A stretch of DNA of 13,484 nucleotides, taken from Azolla caroliniana (lineage: Eukaryota > Plantae > Polypodiophyta). The DNA is taken from positions 1 to 13,484 of the forward strand of contig JBHGNT010000949.1 in NCBI GenBank assembly GCA_043228905.1, given 5' to 3'. The position numbers were made by a program, and so were the translations under genes. The notes under the pieces are model-generated. The model did no database searches and had not been told where the DNA came from. It saw only the letters and a program-made list of their open reading frames with translations. This document shows positions 360-13,484 of this stretch, piece after piece. The number at the start of each line of letters is the position of its first letter. Position 1 is the stretch's first letter.

Positions 360-725
360 TGCACATACAATATGTAATAGTGATCACAAGTGCACATATA
401 ATTTGAGTAGTGAAACATCATATTCATATCAAGGTTAGGGCTATGGTTGTAGCATGAGGATGTGATCTATTTGTTGTCTTTACCAACGTACAAATAGATA
501 TCACTAGCAAACAAGTCCCGCCAAAAAACTCACGTTGCACCAACAAACATCTTATTTCAAGTGGATAATGTTTTATGGACTAAAGCTATTATATCATGAC
601 ATGGGAAAGGTTAAGGGATATGTGTGTAACCACGTTAATGACTCAAATGTATGGTTAACAAATGGGTTGGCAAGTTCTAATGCATCTTGTTGTGGTAGTT
701 GAATGGAACTAAATACACATCTCTC
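360..725 (-). pseudogene. Possible Ulp1/C48-like peptidase relic (DNA-transposon associated)
   Basis: Minus strand DVYLVPFNYHNKMH*NL (~721-671; TAG one base from Trp), then HTFESL in another frame and a later TQ...TCDHY. The order resembles the P.N...HW.L / DSL / Q....CG motifs. Several frameshifts are required, so support is weak. Confidence 0.25.
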
Positions 726-1539
726 TTGAGTGATGTTGCACATCAGGAAAATACAGTTAAGCTCCATGTAAGATAAGGACCCCATCATGAGAATGTCCTT
801 GCATGAATATACATATGCTTAATGTGTCTTAAAAGCTTATCTAAAACATATTTTCAAAGCACTTGATCAAAACAACACATGATTTTGCATCTACATCATA
901 TTAAAGGTTCTTTATGTAGAATACCCAAATCCTTTGTGCCTTCCCACAATTTGAGGAGAACTACGCACTAGGTATGTTTTTGCTAACCTTCAACCACACG
1001 CACTTGCAACTATATTTATTGAAATACATATCTGGGGAGATTAAGTTACTCTTCTCATAGCAATAATATTATGAAGTTAGTGGTTATGAGCGTTATGGAA
1101 TTCAAATTTGTGATAATCTGGATCCATCCTAAATTTAATGATCAACAAATATTCTTTCTCCATTCTTACTCTATCTTTGTGGGTATAATGTGTTATGGTT
1201 CCTATCACCTAATTTAGTGAGTTCTATGAAGAGTACATAATATTAAGGTTAAATGTCATTGAGAAAAACATTTTCAGTGCATAGTCTAAAAGTAATATCG
1301 AAACAATGGATCAAAAATATGAAGTGTCACTTTTAAATGTGAACTCGAGTTTACTTGTGTCTTAGAAATTTAAAGATTTCGATTGGAATATGTATATAGC
1401 TCATCCGTGTCACTTTTAAGTAACTTTGTTTGTACTAATGAAAAACATGATTTCATTTTACAATTTTCCTAAAATAAAGAGAATTAAAGGGTATGATCAA
1501 TTTCAAAGAGACCATATAAATTCTCACATGCATCAAACT

Positions 1540-1950
1540 ATGCTTCATCGTTACATTGAGGCTAATACAATATACTTGTGTGATGCGTTAGCATTCTCGA
1601 ACAAGCAAGTGATTGCATTTAGGAAACATGATCCTTTATCACGTACTAACTCTAATGGACAATCAAAGTGCACAATTATGTTCCACACAAAAATTGGGTT
1701 GTGTCTCACTGTCTTGTGCATCACTCTTTTAGCAAGCTTTGACTTTAGCCCACTTTGTGCAATATTCCACGGTAGTAATGATGTCATGATTTTGATTAAA
1801 TGTTGTGTTGGTTGGTCAAAGGAAATCTATTCCCCATTTCTCGAATGCCTGGCAAGCTATGACTTGTTATAGGAGGTTCTTATCAACCTTTAATGGGTGT
1901 TTATCGCATTTACACTCATGAAAATGTTTGTGTATTTGTAAATGTCTTCG
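1540..1950 (-). pseudogene. Degenerate Ty3/Gypsy integrase (end of zinc-binding region plus rve catalytic core)
   Basis: Manual minus-strand translation: QVIACQAFEKWGIDFL*PT (FEKWGIDF at 1845-1822), IITTVEYCTKWAKVKAC, then after a frameshift FVWNIIVHFDCPLELVRDKGSCFLN (inside listed ORF 1551..1787) and PQCN. This follows the Gypsy rve order PFxxWGIDFVGP / IxxxDYxTKWxEA / IIxRFGxPxxLVSDxGxxF / YPQxNG. Multiple stops and frameshifts. Confidence 0.85.
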
Positions 1951-2310
1951 AAATGCATCAATCACCTCAAGTTGGGTTGGAGATAATGAATTGAGATTCC
2001 TTGAAGGGGCCAACACAAGTACTCATACCTTCGAGGGACACTTTCCAATTATCACTATCGAGTCTCAAGGGGTCACCTTTCTCACAATGGGTTAATTGAA
2101 ATTTTGGTAGATGTCACTCCCCAATGGCAAAGACTACAATGTACACCATACATCAAGACATATTACTTATTTCTCCACTCCATGCCACGGTGGAAGCTTG
2201 AAAGCCTTCTTAATTTGTTAACTTAAATTAAACACAAATATAATCACTACATTATTTAAGAATCATGTTTATCTTTATTAATATATATTTACCACATAAG
2301 AAACATATAA

Positions 2311-2558
2311 GGGAAAAGTACAAGGATACCCCTGGAAGTTTGTCTATATTACCAGAATGCCCCTGGAAGTTCCAAATTTACCAAACTACCCTTATGTCCA
2401 AAAAATACACTTTATAAAGTAATTATACACTCAAATCTTTGGTAAATAGGGCTAGTTCAGGTCCATTTCTTCCATCTTTGGTAAATAGGGCTTGTAGATT
2501 TGAGTGTATAATTACTTTATAAAGTGTAATTTTTTGGACATAGGGGTAGTTTGGTAAA
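2311..2558. mobile_element. Mutator (MULE)-like non-autonomous foldback element / MITE, right end truncated
   Basis: Near-perfect inverted repeat 2377-2438 vs 2496-2558 (1 substitution, 1 single-base indel). The left end starts GGGAAAAGTACAAGGATACCCCT, resembling plant MULE TIR starts, with subrepeat CCCCTGGAAGTT twice. 19-bp direct repeat ATCTTTGGTAAATAGGGCT at 2435-2453 and 2474-2492. No TSD found; superfamily assignment is inference. Confidence 0.6.
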
Positions 2559-2559
2559 C

Positions 2560-2870
2560 CATACATAAAAAAGGGAGTGATATGGTGGTTATATAGTGTC
2601 TAAAAATTGTGCCTAAGCTTCTTTTTTCTTGTGGAGTAGTTTCGTTTTGGTTGGGTTAAGTTGATGACTAGAGAATGTGATAGTGACATTGAAATTTCTA
2701 TCTCGAACTTGACCAAATACCATGCCAACCACAAAGATAGATGTGTAGGTGTGAATACAATACTTTTTATCTCAACCTAATGACCCAATGCTTGTTTCTC
2801 TCTCGAGGCATTCTCTCATTAATTCAAAGAAATTTGTGCAACTATTAGCCCACTTAAATTCATTACATGG
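2560..2870 (-). pseudogene. Degenerate Ty3/Gypsy RT connection and RNase H region, probably the same element as the integrase relic
   Basis: Minus strand from 2858: FKWANSCTNFFELMRECL...DKKYCIHTYTSIFVVGMVFGQ...ITFSSHQLNPT, frameshift, RNYSTRKKEA (2644 downward), then FRHYI (2604-2590). Matches FxWxxxCxxAFxxLK..HTDAS..VGxVLxQ..IxFASRxLxxAERNYSTTExE..FRHYL. RNase H lying upstream of integrase is the Gypsy domain order. Confidence 0.8.
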
Positions 2871-3211
2871 TCCATAAATTGACCAGTGTGTTGGCATAAG
2901 TTACTTCCATTGAGCGTACGTCTTCATTTCAATGGTCGAGATCATATGTCGAGGCCAAACTATCACATAAAATCTTTATGGTGAATAAGAAGAGAGTGCT
3001 CATTGGGCATTCTCAAGCTACAAACCTTGTAAACCAAGACTTAGTGAACTCTCATTCTCCTAACTCGTTTATTGTTCCTAACTAAGAAACTAAATGTAGC
3101 CTTAATGTTATGTATACCATATATACACTAACAAGAACAAAACCACACTTAGTAAGTTAAGACACTACATAACAAATACAAAGAGATCAATGTTTGGCTC
3201 TCAGTACTTAA

Positions 3212-3496
3212 CACCTAATATTGTTAGAGTATGAGAGAGACTCCTCTAGCATAATTGAAACCCGGGAGCTTTTTGATGAATTATTGTTGGTTGGAGGTGT
3301 GGTACAATGGACTTCCATGTTATTGGGCTAAACTAAGCACAATAAGAACGAGTATGCTACACAACTCTATCCTCAAATACTTGTGCAAGGTCTCTTACCT
3401 AATATGATGACATTTTCTGGTATGAAAGCAAGTGGCAACATGGGAGATTTGGTAGTACATATTGAAATGAAATTAGATTTTGAGATGGATCTCAGT
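3212..3496 (+). pseudogene. PLS-class pentatricopeptide repeat (PPR) gene fragment
   Basis: Frame from 3248: SIIETRELFDELLLVGGVVQWTSMLLG*TKHNKNEYATQLYPQILVQGLLPNMMTFSGMKASGNMGDLVVHIEMKLDFEMDLS*. This matches the PLS array CGSxxxARxLFD..DVVSWTAMIxGYxxHG..ALxLFxxMxxxGxxPNxxTF..LKACG. TAA at 3329-3331 replaces the conserved Tyr. Confidence 0.8.
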
Positions 3497-4241
3497 TAAA
3501 TGAAGGATCCATGGCTAGTAGTAGCCATTGTCTTACACAAGACAGGCTTGGGAAGGATAGTCACTTCCTTTCCATCTATTTTGTAGGTTGTAGCTTTTAT
3601 GCCTTTTTTAAAACTAATGGAAGGATATTTTGTTTTGAAAAAACATAGATCTAAAGGGAGATAAAGTTCAAGGAGAACTAAAAGGTTATGAAGTGACCTT
3701 TATAATCCTTTACAAAAGTATGGGCCCCTTTCACATGGTTATTTAGTTTATACAAACGTTGCTCACATTAGTAAAAGGAGGACACACCCTCCAATACTAA
3801 TTTAAATGACAGTAGCAACTATATAAGCAAGTTCATACCCTATATTTACGAGGTTGGTTGATGCTTGCAACCGCATTGAAAGGTTCAAAGTTCAAACATA
3901 GCGCACGCGTCTATGAGCCAAATTGGTATTTTGGTCTCACATCAAAAGACAATGTTGGACCCTAATTTTGTACACTTTTGGATGAAGTTTACTAGCTTCA
4001 CAAAATGAGGAGCGAGGTGTAATTGAATAACCCAACTATTCTCTCCAAAACAATATGCAAAAGCCACGATTCAAGATTGCATACATTGAACAAATGGCCT
4101 CTATAATAGGTGCGACGAAGGTGATACAATGACATATGAAAATTTAAATAATGAATCGTTCCATTCAAAATTGCATAACCCCACCCAACAAAACTTCCTA
4201 ATCCCTAGTTAATGTCAAACCTTCAAGTATGAATGTATGAT

Positions 4242-5068
4242 TGTTATGAGGTTTGACGACTCAATGAAGAGGTTGCAGACACCTACCAAGCCGACCACGA
4301 AAGTCGGGGTATATTTTTGTACTTTTTGAAGATCCCTTCTCTTTAGTTTATGTGTGTGCATGTATTTTGTTTATGTTTGATGTGACCATGAGTGTGTGAA
4401 CGAATCTCAATATAAATATGAGTTTGTTATGCACTTATAGGTGTGAATCTATGCGCAAAATTGTGTGTATATTGTGTTAAGTACTTGTATATAGCACAAC
4501 CCATGAAGACATTGACATCAACATTGGTACTAAAAACTAAGTGTAGGATCGAGAAAATGAGGATAAAACAAAGTTGGTTCTAGAGCTTTAGGCCTAATGG
4601 TCAATGGTCACCCCAATGTTAAAAGAGACAACCTTTTTGTCGGTGAGCTATAATTGTCACGTTTGTGTGTTTTCTTCTTCTTGAATTCTTAGTCTTAAAC
4701 CCCTTTTTCAATCCAAGCAAGATCTCTCTCTCTCTCTCTCTCATATTTTGTATAAGTCGAGTGCTTAGTGTTAAGCGCTACTTAGCCAAACACCAATCAA
4801 TCCTTTTTATTCTATATATTGTGTGCATATTATGTATGTTTATTATTTAAGTGTTTAATCTCTTTGTTGGTGTTTAGTACCTCATGTATCTAGCATTAGT
4901 ACCTATTAAGGTATTAACTAGCTCTTCAGCGAGATACTTAGCACATCTACGAGATACAAGTGAGGGTTTGCGGGTTAGGGTTATTGAAGTTAGTGGCTTG
5001 AGAGTGTTTAAAGCACTTTCACTCAATTGGCCACCAATAGGGTATATGGTGGTCCAAACCCCTCAACA
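4242..5068 (+). mobile_element. Possible solo LTR
   Basis: Begins TGTTATGAGGTTTGA and ends CCAAACCCCTCAACA (TG...CA, imperfect terminal inverted repeat with 11/15 matches). Non-coding, with an internal (TC)10. No matching 4-5 bp TSD (ATGAT vs TACTA) and no clear PBS or PPT, so support is weak. Confidence 0.3.
4723..4742. repeat. (TC)10 microsatellite
   Basis: Read directly from the sequence. Confidence 0.95.
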
Positions 5069-5125: not shown

Positions 5126-5150
5126 ATATATATATATATATATATATGTG

Positions 5151-5182
<32 letters not shown>

Positions 5183-5485
5183 GAGAGAGAGAGAGAGAGA
5201 GAGAGAAGTCAATATGTGTTTTCTTTTAAGTGTGTACGTGTGTGCGTGCACGCATTCACACAAACATTGACATAAATAATATAATGGGGTTGTGTGTATG
5301 TATTCTCATGTGTATGTGCATGTAATGGTAGAAATAAGTGTGTTTGCATATGATTATGTTTATATCATATATGTGCGAGTGGGTGTGTTTGGATACGAAT
5401 ATGTGAGTAGACATGTGTGCATGATTATAATCGTAGTTGTGCAATGTGTGTATGTGATAGTTTATGTGTGTCTATATGTGAGTGT
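5126..5485. repeat. Compound microsatellite (AT)11-(TATG)n-(GA)12 followed by degenerate TG/TA-rich low-complexity DNA
   Basis: (AT)11 at 5126-5147, TATG run at ~5155-5182, (GA)12 at 5183-5206, then decayed TGTA/TGTG repeats to ~5485. Confidence 0.9.
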
Positions 5486-6122
5486 ACCAAATTTGGTCCT
5501 TTACTTTGAATCCATCAAGCACATGGTCTATAATTCTTCCTGAAACAAGTAATTTCAAGTTGGGAGGTCGATTATAATTGAATCTCTATGATGGTCATAG
5601 ATCTCGTAATTATAATAAGTTTCAATGAAAATAAATCCAAATCTATGCTAATTTTACTATATTTGAACTTTTGATATTTTACAATATAATAACTCTTACC
5701 ATGAGAACTCGGTTCAGAATATATATTTGAACCCATTTATATTGTAATGTGCAAGATTGAAGTGAGGAAATATTAGCATTAGACGAAATTTGGGGGGGTA
5801 TCGTTGAGTTTCAACATGGCTAGCCAATGATCGACAACAAAATTGTCTTCGTTATCATAAGCCTCCCACGCACCTTCGTGATCCCATTTGTTGCAAAGTA
5901 GGGCTTGATTCCCAAAACTTGAGAACTTGACTATGAGCTCTATTACCTATCATTTGGGAGATCTCTTGTTATATAAAAATAGTAATATCACCTTTCACCC
6001 ATTCACTGCATGCTCTTCCCTTTTGAACATGCACTTGTTCTTATCCTTGTATTGGTGCTTGGTTTCAATAAAAAGCATGTGAACATATTCACGTTTAATG
6101 TTGCATATTTTTTTATCATCAT

Positions 6123-9100
6123 TGGTACACATGGTGGGCTCCTGCTCACGACGTGTTAGAAAGGAGAGGTGGAGTGTGTATTTCGGTGAGGAAATCAGCG
6201 GATATCATCATCTTGGATCATGGCATATTGATCGAAGGTAGGGCTATGTTTTGCTACTTGGAATGGAGGAATGTAAAATTTGGGGTGCTGAATGTCTACG
6301 CACCTAACATTAGCAATGAGAGGACCTCATTTTGGAGACTGTTGGCAAACAAAATTCCCTCCGTCGACAATTGGATAGTGGCAGGGGATTTTAACATGAC
6401 AGAGAGAGTGGAAGATTGTCTTGGGGCTCATTCGAACTTGCTACATGGGGAGGAGTTTAGAGCGTGGGGTTTCTTAACTTCTATGTTGGGAATCCGAGAC
6501 TCGTGGTATTCTACTATGGCAGTTGAGGTGAATTCCTTAAGGTTCTCACGATTTGGCTAGAAGGAGAGTGAAGGATGTCACTCTAGATTGGACCGCATCT
6601 ATGTGAGCCCCGGGATAGAGGAATGGAGTGGCTTCTCATCCATTCTTGCTGGTTTTACTTATTCGGATCACCTTCCAGTATCCTTGACTCTTGAACCTAT
6701 TTATAAGAAGAAGAGTGAGAGCAATGTGAGGATTCCTCCGAAGATTTTCGGTATCCAAAAGGTTAAGGATGCAATGAATACCATTTGGACGGCATCCCCA
6801 TCAGCCCACGACCCGATACAGGTACTAGAGGAAAATATTATTAATTCTTCTTTGTTTCTTCAGAAAGTGGCTAGGGAGGAGTTGTTAAGGTGTCAATACC
6901 GTCTGCAATGCCTAAGGAAGGCAGTCATCTCAGCTCAAAAGCTCACGCAAGTGGACCCATGTTGTGCTTGGGCGAAAGACAGGCTGCAGGAGGCCACTAG
7001 GTTGCTGCAGGAGGTTAGACAGCAACGTGAGCAATTCCTCTTCAGAAAGTCAGCAGAATGGTGGGCTGTCAAGGGAGATAAAGTTAACAGGGAATTTTTT
7101 CTTGCCAAGACTCTGAAACAGAGAGGAACACATATTCATAGTCTCAAACGGGAGGATGATTCAATGACATTTGATCAAGAGGAAATCTTGCAAATGGCGA
7201 CTAATTACTACAGAGACCTTTTAGCTCCTACGTTGACAAACGACCCTCCGAGTAACCTGATGCATGGTGTAATTACATGCTTGAAAACCAGGATTGGAGA
7301 AGCAGCTAAAGCGCAGTTGTCAAAAGCCATAGAGGAGGAAGAGATTGTAGCGGGGCTAGATAAGATACAGAGTATGGCTTGTCCTGGTGCTGACAGTCTT
7401 CCCAAAGCCTTCTTCAAGGAGTTTTGGGAGCAAATTTTTCCAAGCTTGAAAGCTGGACTGCAAGAGATGTGGAGAACGGGACGGATGCCGAGTAGCTTCA
7501 ATGAAGGCTTGATCTACTTGATTCCGAAATCGGAGACTACGCTGCACGAGATTAAGCAATGGAGGCCCATTACAATTTTAAACCTAATTTATAAAAATTT
7601 TGCTAACATATTAGTGCAGAGAATCAAGCCCTTCCTAGGTGATATCATCCAATCCAATCAAACTGGTTTCATGGAGCATCGTTCTATTATGGACAACGTG
7701 ATTTTGTTTTGGGAGGCTGTTGCAACGGCGAAGGTGACCAATCAAAACTTAGCCTGTCTGATGCTCGACTTCGAGAAAGCCTATGATCGAGTGCAATGGT
7801 CTTTCTTGGAAGAAGTGATGAAGGTCATTGAGCTACCATTGGAATGGAGGTGTGCTGCCCAAGCCTTATATAGGAATGGCTCGAGTAAGGTGCTGATTGC
7901 AGGGAGGAAAGGAGCTCAAATCATTCTTACTCGATCCATCAGGCAGGGTTGTCCTCTTGCCCCCTTTCTTTTCCTTTTTATTACTGAAGCAATGTCTGCC
8001 CTTTTTAATAGCCAAGGGGCAAATCTTCATGGTCTTTCGATCCCTAATGCAAGGAAGTCCCTGTTGGATTCGGAGTTCGCGGACGATACGATGTTATACC
8101 TCCAAGGAAATGAAGCGAATCTTGAGAGGGCACAGAGTGCTATTGAGCTCTTTTGCAAGGCATCGGGAGCGTCCATTAATTGGAAGAAGTCCAAGGGTTT
8201 TTGGATCAGCTTGGAGCCCGAGCCTGTTTGGAATCCAAATGCTGAATTCAAATGGATTGCAAATGGGGAAGCCACTAGGTATCTGGGAACGTGGATTGGG
8301 GTAGATATCGACAAGGGAATTCAACTGCAACATATTCAAAGCAAAATCTGTGACAAAATTCGCAACTGGTCAGGGATGAACTTATCATTGGCTGGCAGGA
8401 TCATAGTAGCTAACCATGTGCTTTTGTCTACATTATGGCATGCAGTTTCAGTGTGGATGTTTTACAAGCAAGCTATTCGTACTGTTAAAGCGTGTATTAG
8501 GGGATTTCTTTGGGCGGGGATGAGGAAAGACAATGCGGCAGCCAAAGTATCATGGTCTACATTGATTCTTCCCAAGAGTAAGGGGGGTTTAGGATTGGTT
8601 GACCCTGGATTGCAGAGTCAGGCATTGTTATGTAATATATTGGTAAGAAGCTTGCTACCCGGTGATGAGTTATGGAAAACATTGATACATAATAGGAGCA
8701 TTCTATGGAGTCCAAGACTGGGTGGGCAATGGAAGTCACACAAAGCGTGGCCTTTTTGCATGGACTTAAAATTGAGGAAATCTAACCGATTGGCTGATCA
8801 TACTTGTATGTCAGTGATGCAGGCGTGGAGTATGCTTCGTGGGCATCTAAGTCGGAATCGTCCAAGTACTAGTGCTGAATGGATGTGCCAACCCCTATCG
8901 TGGAACGAGACCGTGCAATCGCCAAAAGGAATGATGCTTGGACAAAGCAAGCGCATGTCGTGGGCTATATTGCATTGTCTAGGGATACACTCGGTGGCTG
9001 ATTGGCTGCGGTTGTCCGGCAATAATCGTGATCAATTATATGAAGACATGGGAAAGGTCAGAAATGGCAGAAAGATGCTTGACGTAGTCAATACAGCTGT

Positions 9101-10214
9101 CTCCTCGCTTCCTATTGGTAATGAGGAAGAGGGTGAATGGTCTGGACAATGTGATGGTACCAGAAATATTATCAATGTCAGGGGTCTAGGAAAGAGTGGG
9201 AAGACCGTCCCGATGGGATTATTAGATGAAAGTGCAGGCTGGTACCCTATTAGAATTGTGGCAAGACACGGAAAGAAATGGAGGGTGAATCCACCAGTCG
9301 AAGAGGTCGAGGAGGATTGGATCTTGTACGTGGTTGAAGGCAAGCCTCTCGAGCGCGTAGAATGGGATCTCGCTGAATATAGGTGGAAGGGAGAACAAGC
9401 TAAATCACTAGGTTTCTTCAAATACTCGACGCGCTTGGGGAGAAAGTTAGGTTCGTATCGTGAGAAATGTGCCAACAAGTGGACCCATGCAGCTATTGAT
9501 TCAGTCTTCGTGGATAGAACCAGGAGCAGGATATGGAACTCATCCCTTCCCGAGCGGATCAAAGTGTTTTTCTGGTTAATCACCCATCGGGTTGTTCCAA
9601 CAGGAGAGTGGCTTGGGAATAGAGGCGGCATGAGTGGTTGCAAGGCGTGTAGTGCGAGCTTGGAGGACATCGCTCATTGTTTGTGGTGTTGCCCACGAGC
9701 GCAAGAAATCTGGCTGAGGAGCTTAAGAATCTTGGCTCGTTTTGGGGTTGAGGTTCATGTATCGAGCGCAGCAATCACTTGGCTGGCCACTGAATCGGCC
9801 TCGTGGTTTCAAGGGTGGGATGGAAACAGTCCTTCTTTAATGGTAAAGCAAGGATCTGTGCAACCAGCAATGCAAGGAGGTTTATTCTTCTTACAGGAAC
9901 GCTACGTGGACATATGGGTATTAGTGGTCGGCCTTACGGTCTGGCAAGTGTGGGTATCTCGGTGCAAGGAGACCCTCGCAGGTAAACGAACCCCACTGGT
10001 TGAGAATTTAATGATGATCTGGTTTAATCTTATTTCTACGTTGCGAGGTGAGTTTGAAAGTCTTCAAGGGCCATCTGATGCAAGTGAAGAAGCTAGAGCT
10101 CGATTCCTTCGGAAATGGAGCGGTTCGTCGATGCTACAGATAATGGATGGTAAAGTGAAGTGGAATTATCAACCACCGCGGTGGCTGTTCCCTCCAAGTG
10201 TTCCTAACATCTAG
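6123..10214 (+). pseudogene. L1 ORF2p: AP endonuclease + reverse transcriptase + C-terminal zinc finger (zf-RVT), interrupted by one TAG
   Basis: ORFs 6153..6560 and 6588..10214 are in the same frame, separated by TAG at 6558-6560. APE motifs: NVYAPN, AGDFN, SRLDRIYVS, SDHLPV. RT motifs: WRPITILN, QTGF, LDFEKAYDRV, IRQGCPLAPFLF, FADD (8076-8087), RYLG. Zinc finger CKAC-x8-H-x4-C at 9639-9692. Confidence 0.95.
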
Positions 10215-10468
10215 ATGGGTGCTGCCATGAGGAGCGAATGGAGGACATCTATGCTGAATTCTGTTTTGTATGAGGCTCACGTGGAGAATAGGTGTTCGAG
10301 TAATGCTATACACATAGAATGATGTGGTGTTTTGGAGTTGTTTTTTTATGTTGTTTCATCTACACATTGTTTTCCTTTGACATGCAAGATGTCTTGTAAG
10401 ATATGAGTTGTAAATGATTCCTTTGTACATTCTTAACTAATGGAAGTAGATGTTTTTGGAAAAAAAAA
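6123..10468 (+). mobile_element. L1-clade LINE (non-LTR retrotransposon), 5'-truncated within the endonuclease domain, no ORF1
   Basis: Composition shifts to higher GC at ~6123. ORF2 has APE, RT and CCHC domains, followed by a ~245 bp T-rich 3' UTR (10215-10459) and an A9 tail at 10460-10468. No TSD identified, so the 5' boundary is approximate. Confidence 0.93.
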
Positions 10469-10662
10469 TATAGATCACCTCTTTTACCATCAATTGCCTT
10501 TAGCAAGTATTGAACACTTCACCCTTTTGTTCTAAAATTAGCTCTTACCATTGTTGTTGACTTCTTCTTTTTTACATTTCCTTTTGATAATGACCAAAAT
10601 CCCAACCTATTATAAAACTTGACTTTGTTGGCTCTTTTCTGCTGTCACATGTACCATATCAT

Positions 10663-10810
10663 GAGGTCAAAAACCATAATGACTAAATGCATGGACTACT
10701 CACCTTTTGATGCCAATGATGTTAGTTTCACATTCCTTGTAAAGGTAAACATTGTCAACACTCTAACAATATTTGATACATGAGTGGGACTATTATCAAA
10801 TACACCACTT
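10663..10810 (+). repeat. Direct repeat copy 1 (~150 bp) on the left flank of the Penelope-like insertion
   Basis: GAGGTCAAAAACCATAATGAC...TCAAATACACC-ACTT aligns by eye to 12089-12238 with 3 substitutions and 2 single-base indels. Confidence 0.97.
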
Positions 10811-11293
10811 ACTCCCGTCTTAAAAAGCAAAATTCATAATCTTTCAAATTACGCCCTTAGTAAATTAGAAATCAAACTTTTAAACCTAGGACTTTTGTTT
10901 ATACCCCCCTGCCCCCCACCTACTAACCAATCCATTCTTCAAGAATACCAAAACCTCAGTAGATCCTTGAGACTTAAACATTTCTTTAAAGACTTAAACT
11001 CTCCCCCCTCTAATCCCTTCAAACTACCCAACCCGAATTGGAACCCTCCTACTAAGTATCCACCGTTAGAGTCTATACTCCATAAACACAATATCTCTCT
11101 CTCCACAAACCTCCATAATAATATACTGCCTAATACCAAAATACCACTACACCTCCAAATAGCACTAACCAGCCGTAGAAAAAACAAACAAATAATCATC
11201 CTACTAGCGGACAAAAACATCGGAGTTTGTGTCCTCGATAAAAAAACATACCTAGATGAAGCCCTAGAACATTTTTCCGACATCACTACATAT
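10811..11293 (+). pseudogene. N-terminal part of a PLE reverse transcriptase (through the DKG-type motif); RT core and GIY-YIG endonuclease absent
   Basis: Within ORF 10784..11407: IHNLSNYALSKLEIKLLNLGLLFIP, LSRSLRLKHFF, PFKLPNPNWNPP, ALTSRRKNKQIIILLADKNIGVCVLDKKTYLDEALEHFSDITTY. Matches the PLE pattern NLS..LS..E..LL..GL.F.P / R.LRLK.FF / AL..L....IVIKPADKG..VV.D...Y......LSD...Y. Homology ends at 11293; the rest of the ORF translates microsatellite. Confidence 0.85.
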
Positions 11294-11415
11294 GTATTTT
11301 ATATCTTCACTCATTTCTTTTCTCTCTCTCTCTCTCTCCCTTTTTTCTCCCTTCTCCCTTCCCCCTCCCCTATACCTCTCACTACCTTTTTGTACACATT
11401 TCACTAAAATCCATA

Positions 11416-11457
<42 letters not shown>

Positions 11458-11845
11458 CTCTTTTCCCTCAAACCTTCTCCCCACCACTCTTACTAACTTC
11501 CTTTTTCTTTCCCTTCTTATTCCCTTCCTTTATTTTCCCCTTCTCACCATCTTATGTTTACTTACTTATAATTACATACCCTATCACTCATTCATTTCCC
11601 CTTATCACCCACTCCCACTCCCACTCACTCATCTGTCTTATCACCCTATCAATCTTCCTATCACCAACTCATTTTCCCCTTTATCACCACCCCCCCTATC
11701 ATCAAGATCTTCCACCTTAAATCCTTACAGCCTTCTATCTATTTACACTCTTATTACACCCCACTCACTATGATTATACTTTCCCTCTTTCTCCTCCCTT
11801 CCCCATTCTCAACATCCTATATAAACCACCTTTTTTATTTACATG
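11294..11845 (+). repeat. Polypyrimidine / low-complexity tract including (TC)9 at 11321-11338 and (TC)18 at 11418-11453
   Basis: Read directly; the + strand has almost no G. Probably the PLE 3' UTR. Confidence 0.85.
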
Positions 11846-11898
11846 ACCTTTTGCACTGATGAGCTCTAAGCGAGCGAAACTAGTTTGTTGCATAAGGT
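11846..11898 (+). ncRNA. Minimal type I hammerhead ribozyme motif
   Basis: Core CTGATGA at 11856-11862; stem II GCTC/GAGC (11863-11866, 11872-11875) with loop TAAGC; GAAA at 11876-11879; palindromic stem III AC-TA-GT; triplet GTT at 11883-11885; outer helix ACCTTTTGCA (11846-11855) with TGCATAAGGT (11889-11898), 9/10 paired. Confidence 0.85.
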
Positions 11899-11929
11899 AT
11901 TTCCTTTCATTTTAATGAAAATTTCTTGA

Positions 11930-11932
<3 letters not shown>

Positions 11933-11990
<58 letters not shown>
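11933..11990. repeat. (TC)29 microsatellite
   Basis: Read directly from the sequence. Confidence 0.97.
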
Positions 11991-11993
<3 letters not shown>

Positions 11994-12088
11994 TTTGTGC
12001 TTAGAATCTCTTCTTTTCCTATTACATTATCTACCATATCACAAAGTCACCCGCACTCTTTGCTACAACCGAATGGTTAATAACAAAA

Positions 12089-12238
12089 GAGGTCAAAAAC
12101 CATAATGACTAAATGCATGGACTACTACACCTTTTGATGCCAATGATGTTAGTTTCACACTCCTTGTAAAGGTAAACGTTGTCAACACTCTAACAATATT
12201 TGATACATGAGTGGGACTATTATCAACTACACCTACTT
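12089..12238 (+). repeat. Direct repeat copy 2 (~150 bp) on the right flank of the Penelope-like insertion
   Basis: Aligns to 10663-10810 and runs on into the downstream retropepsin relic. Confidence 0.97.
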
Positions 12239-12401
12239 GCAAAAGTGGGTTAGTACTAATAATATGCCTCAATCAAAGGTGAATCTTACATTTGTCGTTA
12301 CTAGATCGGCCAACCTAGTGGGCCATGATTGCATGTTACGATGACCTTTCCTTCACGTAAATTGACTTGCCATTGACTTCAAGAACAACATCCTCTATAT
12401 A
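12151..12401 (+). pseudogene. Degenerate LTR-retrotransposon (Gypsy-type) aspartic protease (retropepsin)
   Basis: SFTLLVKVNVVNTLTIFDT*VG (DT* at 12202-12210, TGA one base from GGA, i.e. catalytic DTG). After one frameshift: TIINYTYLQKW...VNLTFVVTRSANLVGHDCMLR*PFLHVN*LAIDFKNNILYI, matching VxVNG..ALxDTGA..S.I and FxV....DxILGxPFL....IDF. Confidence 0.65.
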
Positions 12402-13484
12402 AGAATGGAGAGTAGCATTACCTAATGCAAGTTTACAATAAAAAAGTGCATGAACATGAAGGTAGCCAACTCATGGACGACAATTTGATGACCATAGATT
12501 TTGAGGATAGCTTACTCCAATGCCACCTAGATAATGATTGGAAGATTGATAGAGACGAGAATATAGGGCTCGAGCCACACAACTACTCATCCTTTGAGGT
12601 AAACCATGACTTGTAATGAAGTGGATGCTAATGTTAGCGATGGTTCATTGTGATTAACACACAATGTGGTCATGTTGGTAGAGTCATCCTAGACAGTGAC
12701 CCATGATACTATAAATATCATGACATGTAACACTGCAAATAACCAACACCTCTTATCTCTCATATGAAATCTATGGTAGAGATACAATGGCCTTAATTTA
12801 GTACTAAAGCCATTGTCACAACACTTTCATACAAACATTGGTTATGACTTCATTTGTTGACCCTTATGTAACTTTCAAGCCTCGATGACACGACCATCCA
12901 ATGTGTGGGGATCACTCTCATTGGATATTAAAACCCTTATTAGCAAGACACATGTTCAAGATTGGGTAATGCATGCAGGACAAGGTTGGTGCAACACGAA
13001 TGAATGTATTATTGTTACGAGTGCAAAACTAATGTACTTCACAACCTCTAGTGGTTTCAATATAGAACTCTTCATGTAGGTTGCGGCCTCAAGAAAGTTG
13101 CCTCATTCTGAAGATGCACTGAAGTTAGGCCTTGCCCCGGCCTTGCAACTTTCGGTTTCAACATTCCTACCTCAACAACCCCAAAAAAGAAATCACAACC
13201 CCTAGCAAGTGGGTTCCACCAATCATGCCTATAAATCTTAGTTTATCGAGTTTTAATCCCATTACATGGTGACGAATCTGACGATCCAAGCGTGGTCCCC
13301 CAAAGGATTCTTATCAAGCACGAGTGAACAAAAATGGCACCGTTGTTGGACTAGAGAAAGGAACCTCGGCCACGTGGCAAAAAAAAACTAACATCTACCT
13401 AAGGGTGGCATAAATGCAATGAGAAATTTTTCTTTCAAAACAAGTGCAAATCCCTGTCAAGCCAAAATCACCCAAACCAAATCT

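Follow-up and report, generated by a model that had tools for sequence, protein, structure and literature searches.

Endonuclease-less Penelope-like elements (PLEs) are described as having to find other 3′-OH ends (PMC8557442), and they are reported to lie generally at chromosome ends (PMC8557442, PMC4209133, PMC13159263, PMC12477314). The Coprina group of endonuclease-deficient PLEs, which includes Sm1/Sm2 of Selaginella moellendorffii, is, by its features, the closest described match to the family analyzed here. The reported features in common are a reverse transcriptase (RT) without GIY-YIG, a hammerhead in the terminal repeat, telomere-type repeats beside the hammerhead in some units, head-to-tail arrays, and an upstream ORF as in Coprina-1_Alen (PMC8557442, PMC4209133, PMC13159263). 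Coprina-type elements are generally restricted to chromosome ends, whereas the copy described below carries no telomere-type array and sits in a 145-nt target duplication. Canonical Penelope/Poseidon elements (Adineta vaga Pen2 and Pen3a, Anolis PAc) resemble this copy in a 3′ end at an internal RNA start, 5′ microhomology, and internal deletions (PMC3846280, PMC11167929). They differ in having a C-terminal GIY-YIG and duplications of 8–10 bp in the examples reported (PMC3846280, PMC6431247), and the insert contains no inverted pseudo-LTR.

Host DNA of >100 bp doubled around a 5′-truncated retrocopy has been reported for LINEs (PMC9977147, PMC5223499, PMC2666801). The duplication is 126 bp for rotifer R9 and has a median of 900 bp for Chlamydomonas Dualen-4b (PMC9977147), and one of 1228 bp is given for zebrafish ZfL2-2 (PMC2666801). 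R9, Dualen, L1, and ZfL2-2 encode their own endonuclease, whereas none is detectable in the present family. Endonuclease-independent L1 insertion is similar in that the retrocopy is a likely patch at an existing break, but it is tied in the source to target deletions and translocations and not to long duplications (PMC1920257). HERV-K (HML-2) provides insertionally polymorphic sites with duplications of 111 and 250 bp and an empty allele (PMC5488345); it is an integrase-dependent LTR element of different chemistry. A literature search, with most hits judged from their listings, found no long duplication around an endonuclease-less PLE, and the novelty of such a case is provisional.

The window is a 13,484-nt stretch of Azolla caroliniana DNA (contig JBHGNT010000949.1). 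A first-pass annotation of its sequence had interpreted a direct repeat of ~150 bp around a PLE as a giant target-site duplication, far beyond the typical length. The length is indeed unusual, but the cases cited above are precedents among retroelements.

The direct repeat and its alleles

Self-BLAST paired positions 10663–10810 with 12089–12238 in a 150-column alignment of 96.7% identity (E 2.7e-67). Its 3 substitutions and 2 one-base gaps are the same differences as counted in the first-pass annotation. Positions 10804–10816 are the element's own ORF2 sequence. Therefore, the duplication comprises 144 nt in the 5′ copy and 145 nt in the 3′ copy, which differ by 3 substitutions and 1 indel, and the second apparent indel is the 5′ junction itself. 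The coordinates are presented in Table 1. The element runs from 10804 to 12088 and is abutted by the repeat at both ends, as had been claimed. The annotation had further described the repeat as lacking the hammerhead, as unlike the insert in G content, and as carrying a shared TGA. The hammerhead-like motif was located inside the insert, G makes up 14.7% and 15.3% of the two copies versus 5.9% of the insert, and the TGA follows ...TIFDT in both copies.

Table 1. Features of the insertion and its target, in positions of the window
Feature	Position	Strand	Basis or remark
Target-site duplication, 5′ copy, 144 nt	10663..10806	+	Self-alignment, single-copy depth; last 3 nt (10804–10806) common to the element
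Truncated N-terminal part of ORF2 (reverse transcriptase)	10804..11293	+	97.7% identity to L001 over 10811–11293
Internal-deletion breakpoint, ~1.45 kb gone (remainder of the RT gene and beginning of the untranslated region behind it)	11293..11295	+	Comparison with relatives
Pyrimidine-rich untranslated region of the element	11295..11842	+	80–83% identity to L001, L018, L032, and L038
Type I hammerhead-like motif of the element's terminal repeat (predicted)	11843..11907	+	Rfam HH9
(CT)n tract of the element	11932..11990	+	Also present in L001
Conserved 3′-terminal segment	12053..12088	+	Usual end point of the family, ~17 nt ahead of the next unit's ORF1 start codon
Target-site duplication, 3′ copy, 145 nt	12089..12233	+	Letters of the X3 empty allele at all four sites that differ between the copies
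Low-copy host continuation with decayed reading frames; aspartic-protease likeness by eye only	12234..12450	+	Single-copy depth, continuity in X3 record 18

The sample data (X1, X3, X4, X6, and X10) are contigs, and the locus is seen through contigs and depth rather than through a single molecule across it. In X1 the repeat bins have depths of 47.7 and 67.2 against a flank base of 55.7–61.6, and the covered bins of the insert reach 376–3291. The target is low-copy DNA that has one or two distant paralogues. The first-pass annotation had suggested a search for an empty orthologous site, and one is found in X3, where a contig of 3082 nt (record 18; depth 18, equal to flank depth) joins 10662 to 12089 with a single copy of the repeat. 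The depth in X3 is flat at 18 over 12096–12139, and none of the contigs listed crosses the junction there. An empty homologue that is ~90% identical was also obtained from X4 (record 24).

The filled 3′ junction is represented by a 59-nt contig across 12088/12089 in X1 (depth 43.5, flank 55.7) and in X4 (depth 6.85, flank 10.7). These contigs hold 29 and 30 letters on the two sides, which is under the 31-letter rule for a bridge. The flank contigs of X1 and X4 break at 12089. Since both samples retain the break and the junction contig, a junction that is present survives assembly. On this ground, and for the SNPs that X3 has of its own, graph simplification was set aside as an unlikely origin of the X3 join. 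Among the contigs listed, none crosses the 5′ junction. The filled appearance of X6 comes from 4 junction bases at a depth of 2.9 and was left out of the evidence, and X10, with its repeat bins uncovered, contributes nothing. Over window positions 10534–12508, X4 holds the filled allele and the ~90% identical empty homologue at similar depth (10.7 and 12.2), as in a hybrid or polyploid.

The repeat was not found at any of the 8 listed loose ends behind 12080–12092 (four runs; 17 of 19 rows); 5 of these ends lead into unrelated DNA and 3 into the element's own next unit, as in L001. The best match of the repeat within the 52 family loci is 13 nt long (E 0.41). Within the reach of contigs, this absence from 8/8 listed ends and 52/52 loci bears out the statement that the repeat is not a pseudo-LTR. 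Three of the four variant letters of the 5′ copy occur in an X1 contig and are thus not errors in the window. It is very probable that the 145-nt repeat is locus-specific host DNA, present twice around the Penelope-like insertion and once in the empty allele.

The duplicated DNA had been read in the first-pass annotation as the first half of a decayed retropepsin and as Gypsy-derived. The duplication of host DNA upon insertion is upheld by the single-copy depth and the empty allele, but the Gypsy identity is a matter of motif resemblance, and the retropepsin assignment was not sustained. A Pfam search returned no protease family in 9/9 frames (X at stops) or in 3/3 open pieces, a search whose sensitivity is lowered by the decay, and 0 of 20 candidates scored in the homologue search for the target protease. 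Remnants of RT, RNase H, or integrase were absent from the three plus-strand frames of 12451–13484. By eye, the corresponding position of a distant paralogue shows L-D-T-R, which would fit a decayed D-T-G motif of an aspartic protease.

The two copies differ at positions 10701, 10733, 10751, and 10800, and when polarized with X3 all four changes fall on the 5′ copy (two-sided p 0.125). The copies differ at 4/145 positions versus 8/988 between the flanks of the window and X3 (Fisher p 0.056; 0.16 when the site next to the junction is left out). If X3 represents the pre-insertion state, the Poisson p of four changes on a single branch is 0.003. The ORF part of the insert carries 10 private changes in 483 nt relative to 6 relatives, and of the 10 codons that differ from L001, 4 are silent and 6 residue-changing, which fits neutral aging. 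Two histories would account for the copy differences: error-prone synthesis of the 5′ copy, or an older insertion that X3 lost through recombination within the first 38 nt of the copies. By a rough estimate they are about equally likely, and either keeps the duplication reading intact. The X3 allele could thus be a secondary loss of the insertion, and precise loss by recombination between duplication copies has been suggested for L1 (PMC5223499). The recent date proposed in the first-pass annotation fits the presence and absence of the insertion between samples, but is tempered by the copies, which differ more from each other than the window does from the X3 allele.

The insert, its family, and its surroundings

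Judged from its sequence, the insert is a 5′-truncated, internally deleted copy of a two-ORF Penelope-like family. The family set consists of 52 loci from a scan of metagenome contigs. The ORF part of the insert has 86% amino acid identity to P0001, and the full RT of the family is 612–656 aa. The element begins at 10804, and 10804–10816 matches the ORF2 of L001, L002, L018, and L038; at 10816/10817, between two short direct repeats, a stretch of 18 nt is absent. At 11293 other copies continue into the ORF, and the gap relative to L018, L032, and L038 is 1452–1458 nt. A TATA-like box is read from the sequence at 11817–11828. The hammerhead-like motif is predicted from an Rfam HH9 match that scores 21.7 bits (E 0.041), short of the gathering score of 52; its core recurs in many family loci.

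The 3′ ends of five dispersed loci (L014, L031, L035, L037, and L038) lie 34–44 nt from the conserved motif. The corresponding distance in the window is 36 nt, which identifies 12088 as the ordinary 3′ end of the family. One base is shared at the 3′ junction (L001, L025). A 4-nt homology proposed for this junction from contigs ending at 12092 was dropped, since L001 and L025 share one base only. At the 5′ junction, 3 nt are common to the element and the end of the duplication, or 7/8 with one bulge, and the chance of an exact 3-nt microhomology is ~5%. The target boundaries are CAT/GAG and ACC/TAC.

The order within the head-to-tail units of L001 is ORF1 (842 codons), the RT ORF, a pyrimidine-rich untranslated region, the hammerhead, (CT)n, ~170 nt of telomere-type repeats, a short terminal segment, and the next ORF1. 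The real terminal repeat of the element, as seen in L001, is the hammerhead segment. ORF1 (L001 4348–6876) contains NP-rich repeats built from telomere-like DNA and has no significant Pfam match. In the L018 and L001 arrays, head-to-tail neighbors belong to different subfamilies (67% and 85% identical).

In L001 the hammerhead is succeeded by telomere-type repeats, and in L006 the usual 3′ end of the family runs into such repeats. No telomere-type array was found in or beside the window copy, and the 13.5-kb window holds one 7-nt match. In L001 the block occupies 4105–4258, between (CT)n and the 3′ motif, and it is absent from the corresponding interval of the window (12000–12020) and from L038; subfamilies may therefore differ in telomere targeting. 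The family has a depth of ~10–60 times single copy and many dispersed junctions.

Full-length relatives show an RVT_1 match, a DKN motif, and a YIDD core. A GIY-YIG domain was absent by Pfam from 6 translations of L001, with ORF1, ORF2, and three downstream frames included, and a six-frame pattern search for GIY-YIG detected 0 in the 52 family loci, with an ad hoc pattern that could miss a divergent or separately encoded nuclease. Among the best 120 of 129 relatives, PF01541, the GIY-YIG family, is confined to those with ≤35% identity; the closest proteins with a name come from Cryptomeria (43–45%), Gb_11119 (41%), and Selaginella (40%). A quick tree was calculated from 50 selected proteins, several of them on long branches. 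In it the 8 rows of the family cluster together (SH-aLRT 100) within a group of 25 rows that includes the Selaginella, Cryptomeria, and Gb_11119 proteins (98), and a single branch separates all 12 of the GIY-YIG-bearing relatives from the family (SH-aLRT 98). The Selaginella protein that groups with the family is uncharacterized. These plant neighbors make a land plant the likely host. The search for a solved structure for the RT alignment gave no match. From these comparisons the family is Penelope-like, with no detectable endonuclease.

Flank-to-flank duplications were sought at other copies. Non-shared sequence on both sides is available at 11 loci, of which L027, L037, L042, and L046 were dropped because their flanks are <90 nt or element-like. 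None of the 7 informative loci has a duplication, and the window, used as the positive control, does show one. This sample is biased, since contigs from short reads end at long repeats and some may be chimeric; among the 7 loci the usual 3′ end is seen at L031 only. The long duplication is one event, and a family-wide habit is not shown. The 5′ flank of one dispersed copy (L029 1–896) resembles a Copia RT by eye and has no continuation on the 3′ side, which may reflect a target deletion or a chimeric contig.

Other features lie near the insertion. A near-intact LINE ORF on the plus strand (6099–10469; endonuclease, RT, and zf-RVT, interrupted by one TAG at 6558–6560) has its poly(A) end 193 nt before the duplication, and no target duplication of ≥8 nt was found for it within the stretches searched. 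The X3 contig matches the window from 10467 on and has 944 other bases before that point, so the LINE is likely absent from the X3 haplotype too. A hairpin element of ~180 nt at 2377–2558 resembles a small inverted-repeat transposon; its 63-nt arms are 96.8% identical, and it has a 22-nt repeat inside. A compound microsatellite (TA, TATG, GA) followed by a G-skewed, GT-rich tract occupies 5127–5420.

Routes to a long duplication

On balance, the most likely origin of the duplication is a staggered break, already present and with nicks ~145 nt apart, one end of which the RT of the element used for priming. Host damage or repair would have produced the nicks on opposite strands; as no nuclease is detectable in the family, they likely came from elsewhere. 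The primer would have been the bottom-strand 3′ end of the right-hand fragment, used like a telomere overhang, and synthesis would have started inside the element RNA just upstream of ORF1 with ≤1 nt of target homology. The orientation, as judged from L006, is the one expected for telomere-overhang priming. About 1.3 kb would then have been copied from an internally deleted template, or 1.45 kb skipped, and the cDNA end would have been joined to the left-hand end via microhomology. Filling of both gaps by host polymerases would have doubled the 145 nt. Tandem duplications from opposite-strand nicks are described for mammalian cells in PMC8355091 and reportedly form in plants as well. A purified PLE enzyme is reported to initiate inside its own RNA without target homology (PMC11167929). 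The location of all four copy differences on the 5′ copy is not predicted by a symmetric two-nick model and stands against it.

That asymmetry is what would be produced at a one-ended break, where the enzyme extends a broken fork and the cDNA end invades the sister chromatid 145 nt further on at a microhomology, such that the 5′ copy is wholly new and error-prone. The copies also differ more than the alleles do, with the Poisson value given above if X3 is the pre-insertion state, and the 18-nt skip just inside the 5′ junction suggests unstable synthesis. The same asymmetry is explained, however, by an older insertion with an X3 allele derived by recombination in the first 38 nt of the copies, and the private changes of the ORF part, silent and residue-changing, point to neutral aging. 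Four events are also a small number. A one-ended break is considered improbable. It is also rather unlikely that the first nick was made in trans by the endonuclease of another element, such as an abundant LINE, with the second nick far off as in the long-duplication tail of LINE insertions. The LINE with an endonuclease domain that ends at about 10469 has a very high-copy 3′ end and lies close to the duplication, but the target boundaries differ from the T-rich site of L1, although the neighboring LINE may prefer another site. This LINE also seems to be absent from the X4 flank contig, a piece of which starts near 10467, though X4 has the insertion; the observation weakly suggests that LINE and insert were not co-inserted. 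Duplications of >100 bp are reported for up to 10% of L1 events in HeLa cells and for most events in NER-deficient cells (PMC5223499), and Dualen duplications have the long median quoted above (PMC9977147), but in Adineta no cross-mobilization of endonuclease-less elements by Penelope endonucleases is reported (PMC3846280).

Two further explanations were weighed. PLEs are reported to form direct repeats and tails of 30–40 bp (PMC8557442), and none of the listed reads or contigs covers the filled locus from end to end, which would leave room for a pseudo-LTR, a tail, or an assembly artifact. These are very unlikely given the single-copy depth, the absence of the repeat from the listed ends and the family loci, the empty allele, the junction contigs in two samples, and the 5′-copy letters in X1; the real terminal repeat of the element is, moreover, the hammerhead segment. 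Unequal crossing-over between two insertions 145 nt apart on different haplotypes, which would leave a chimeric element between host copies, would account for the excess divergence of the copies and would allow the internal deletion to be read as a scar of the crossover. It requires two same-orientation insertions within 145 nt in a family whose depth is only about 10–60 times single copy, and an allele with one junction only was not seen across 5 runs. We consider this the least likely of the explanations.

Meaning for the element family

The 145-nt target duplication is real and specific to this locus, and it encloses a broken Penelope-like copy. The case is one event, in a class with long duplications already published, and what distinguishes it is an element without detectable endonuclease. 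With its two junctions, its long duplication, and an empty allele to compare, the locus constrains primer acquisition away from telomeres. It is possible, although we propose it only tentatively, that telomere-type nuclease-less PLEs of land plants routinely patch breaks inside chromosomes and treat any exposed 3′ end as a telomere. The length of the duplication would then be the stagger of the host break, and long duplications would permit later precise removal, of which X3 may be an example. Recombination between the copies of a long duplication could in any case reverse such an insertion.
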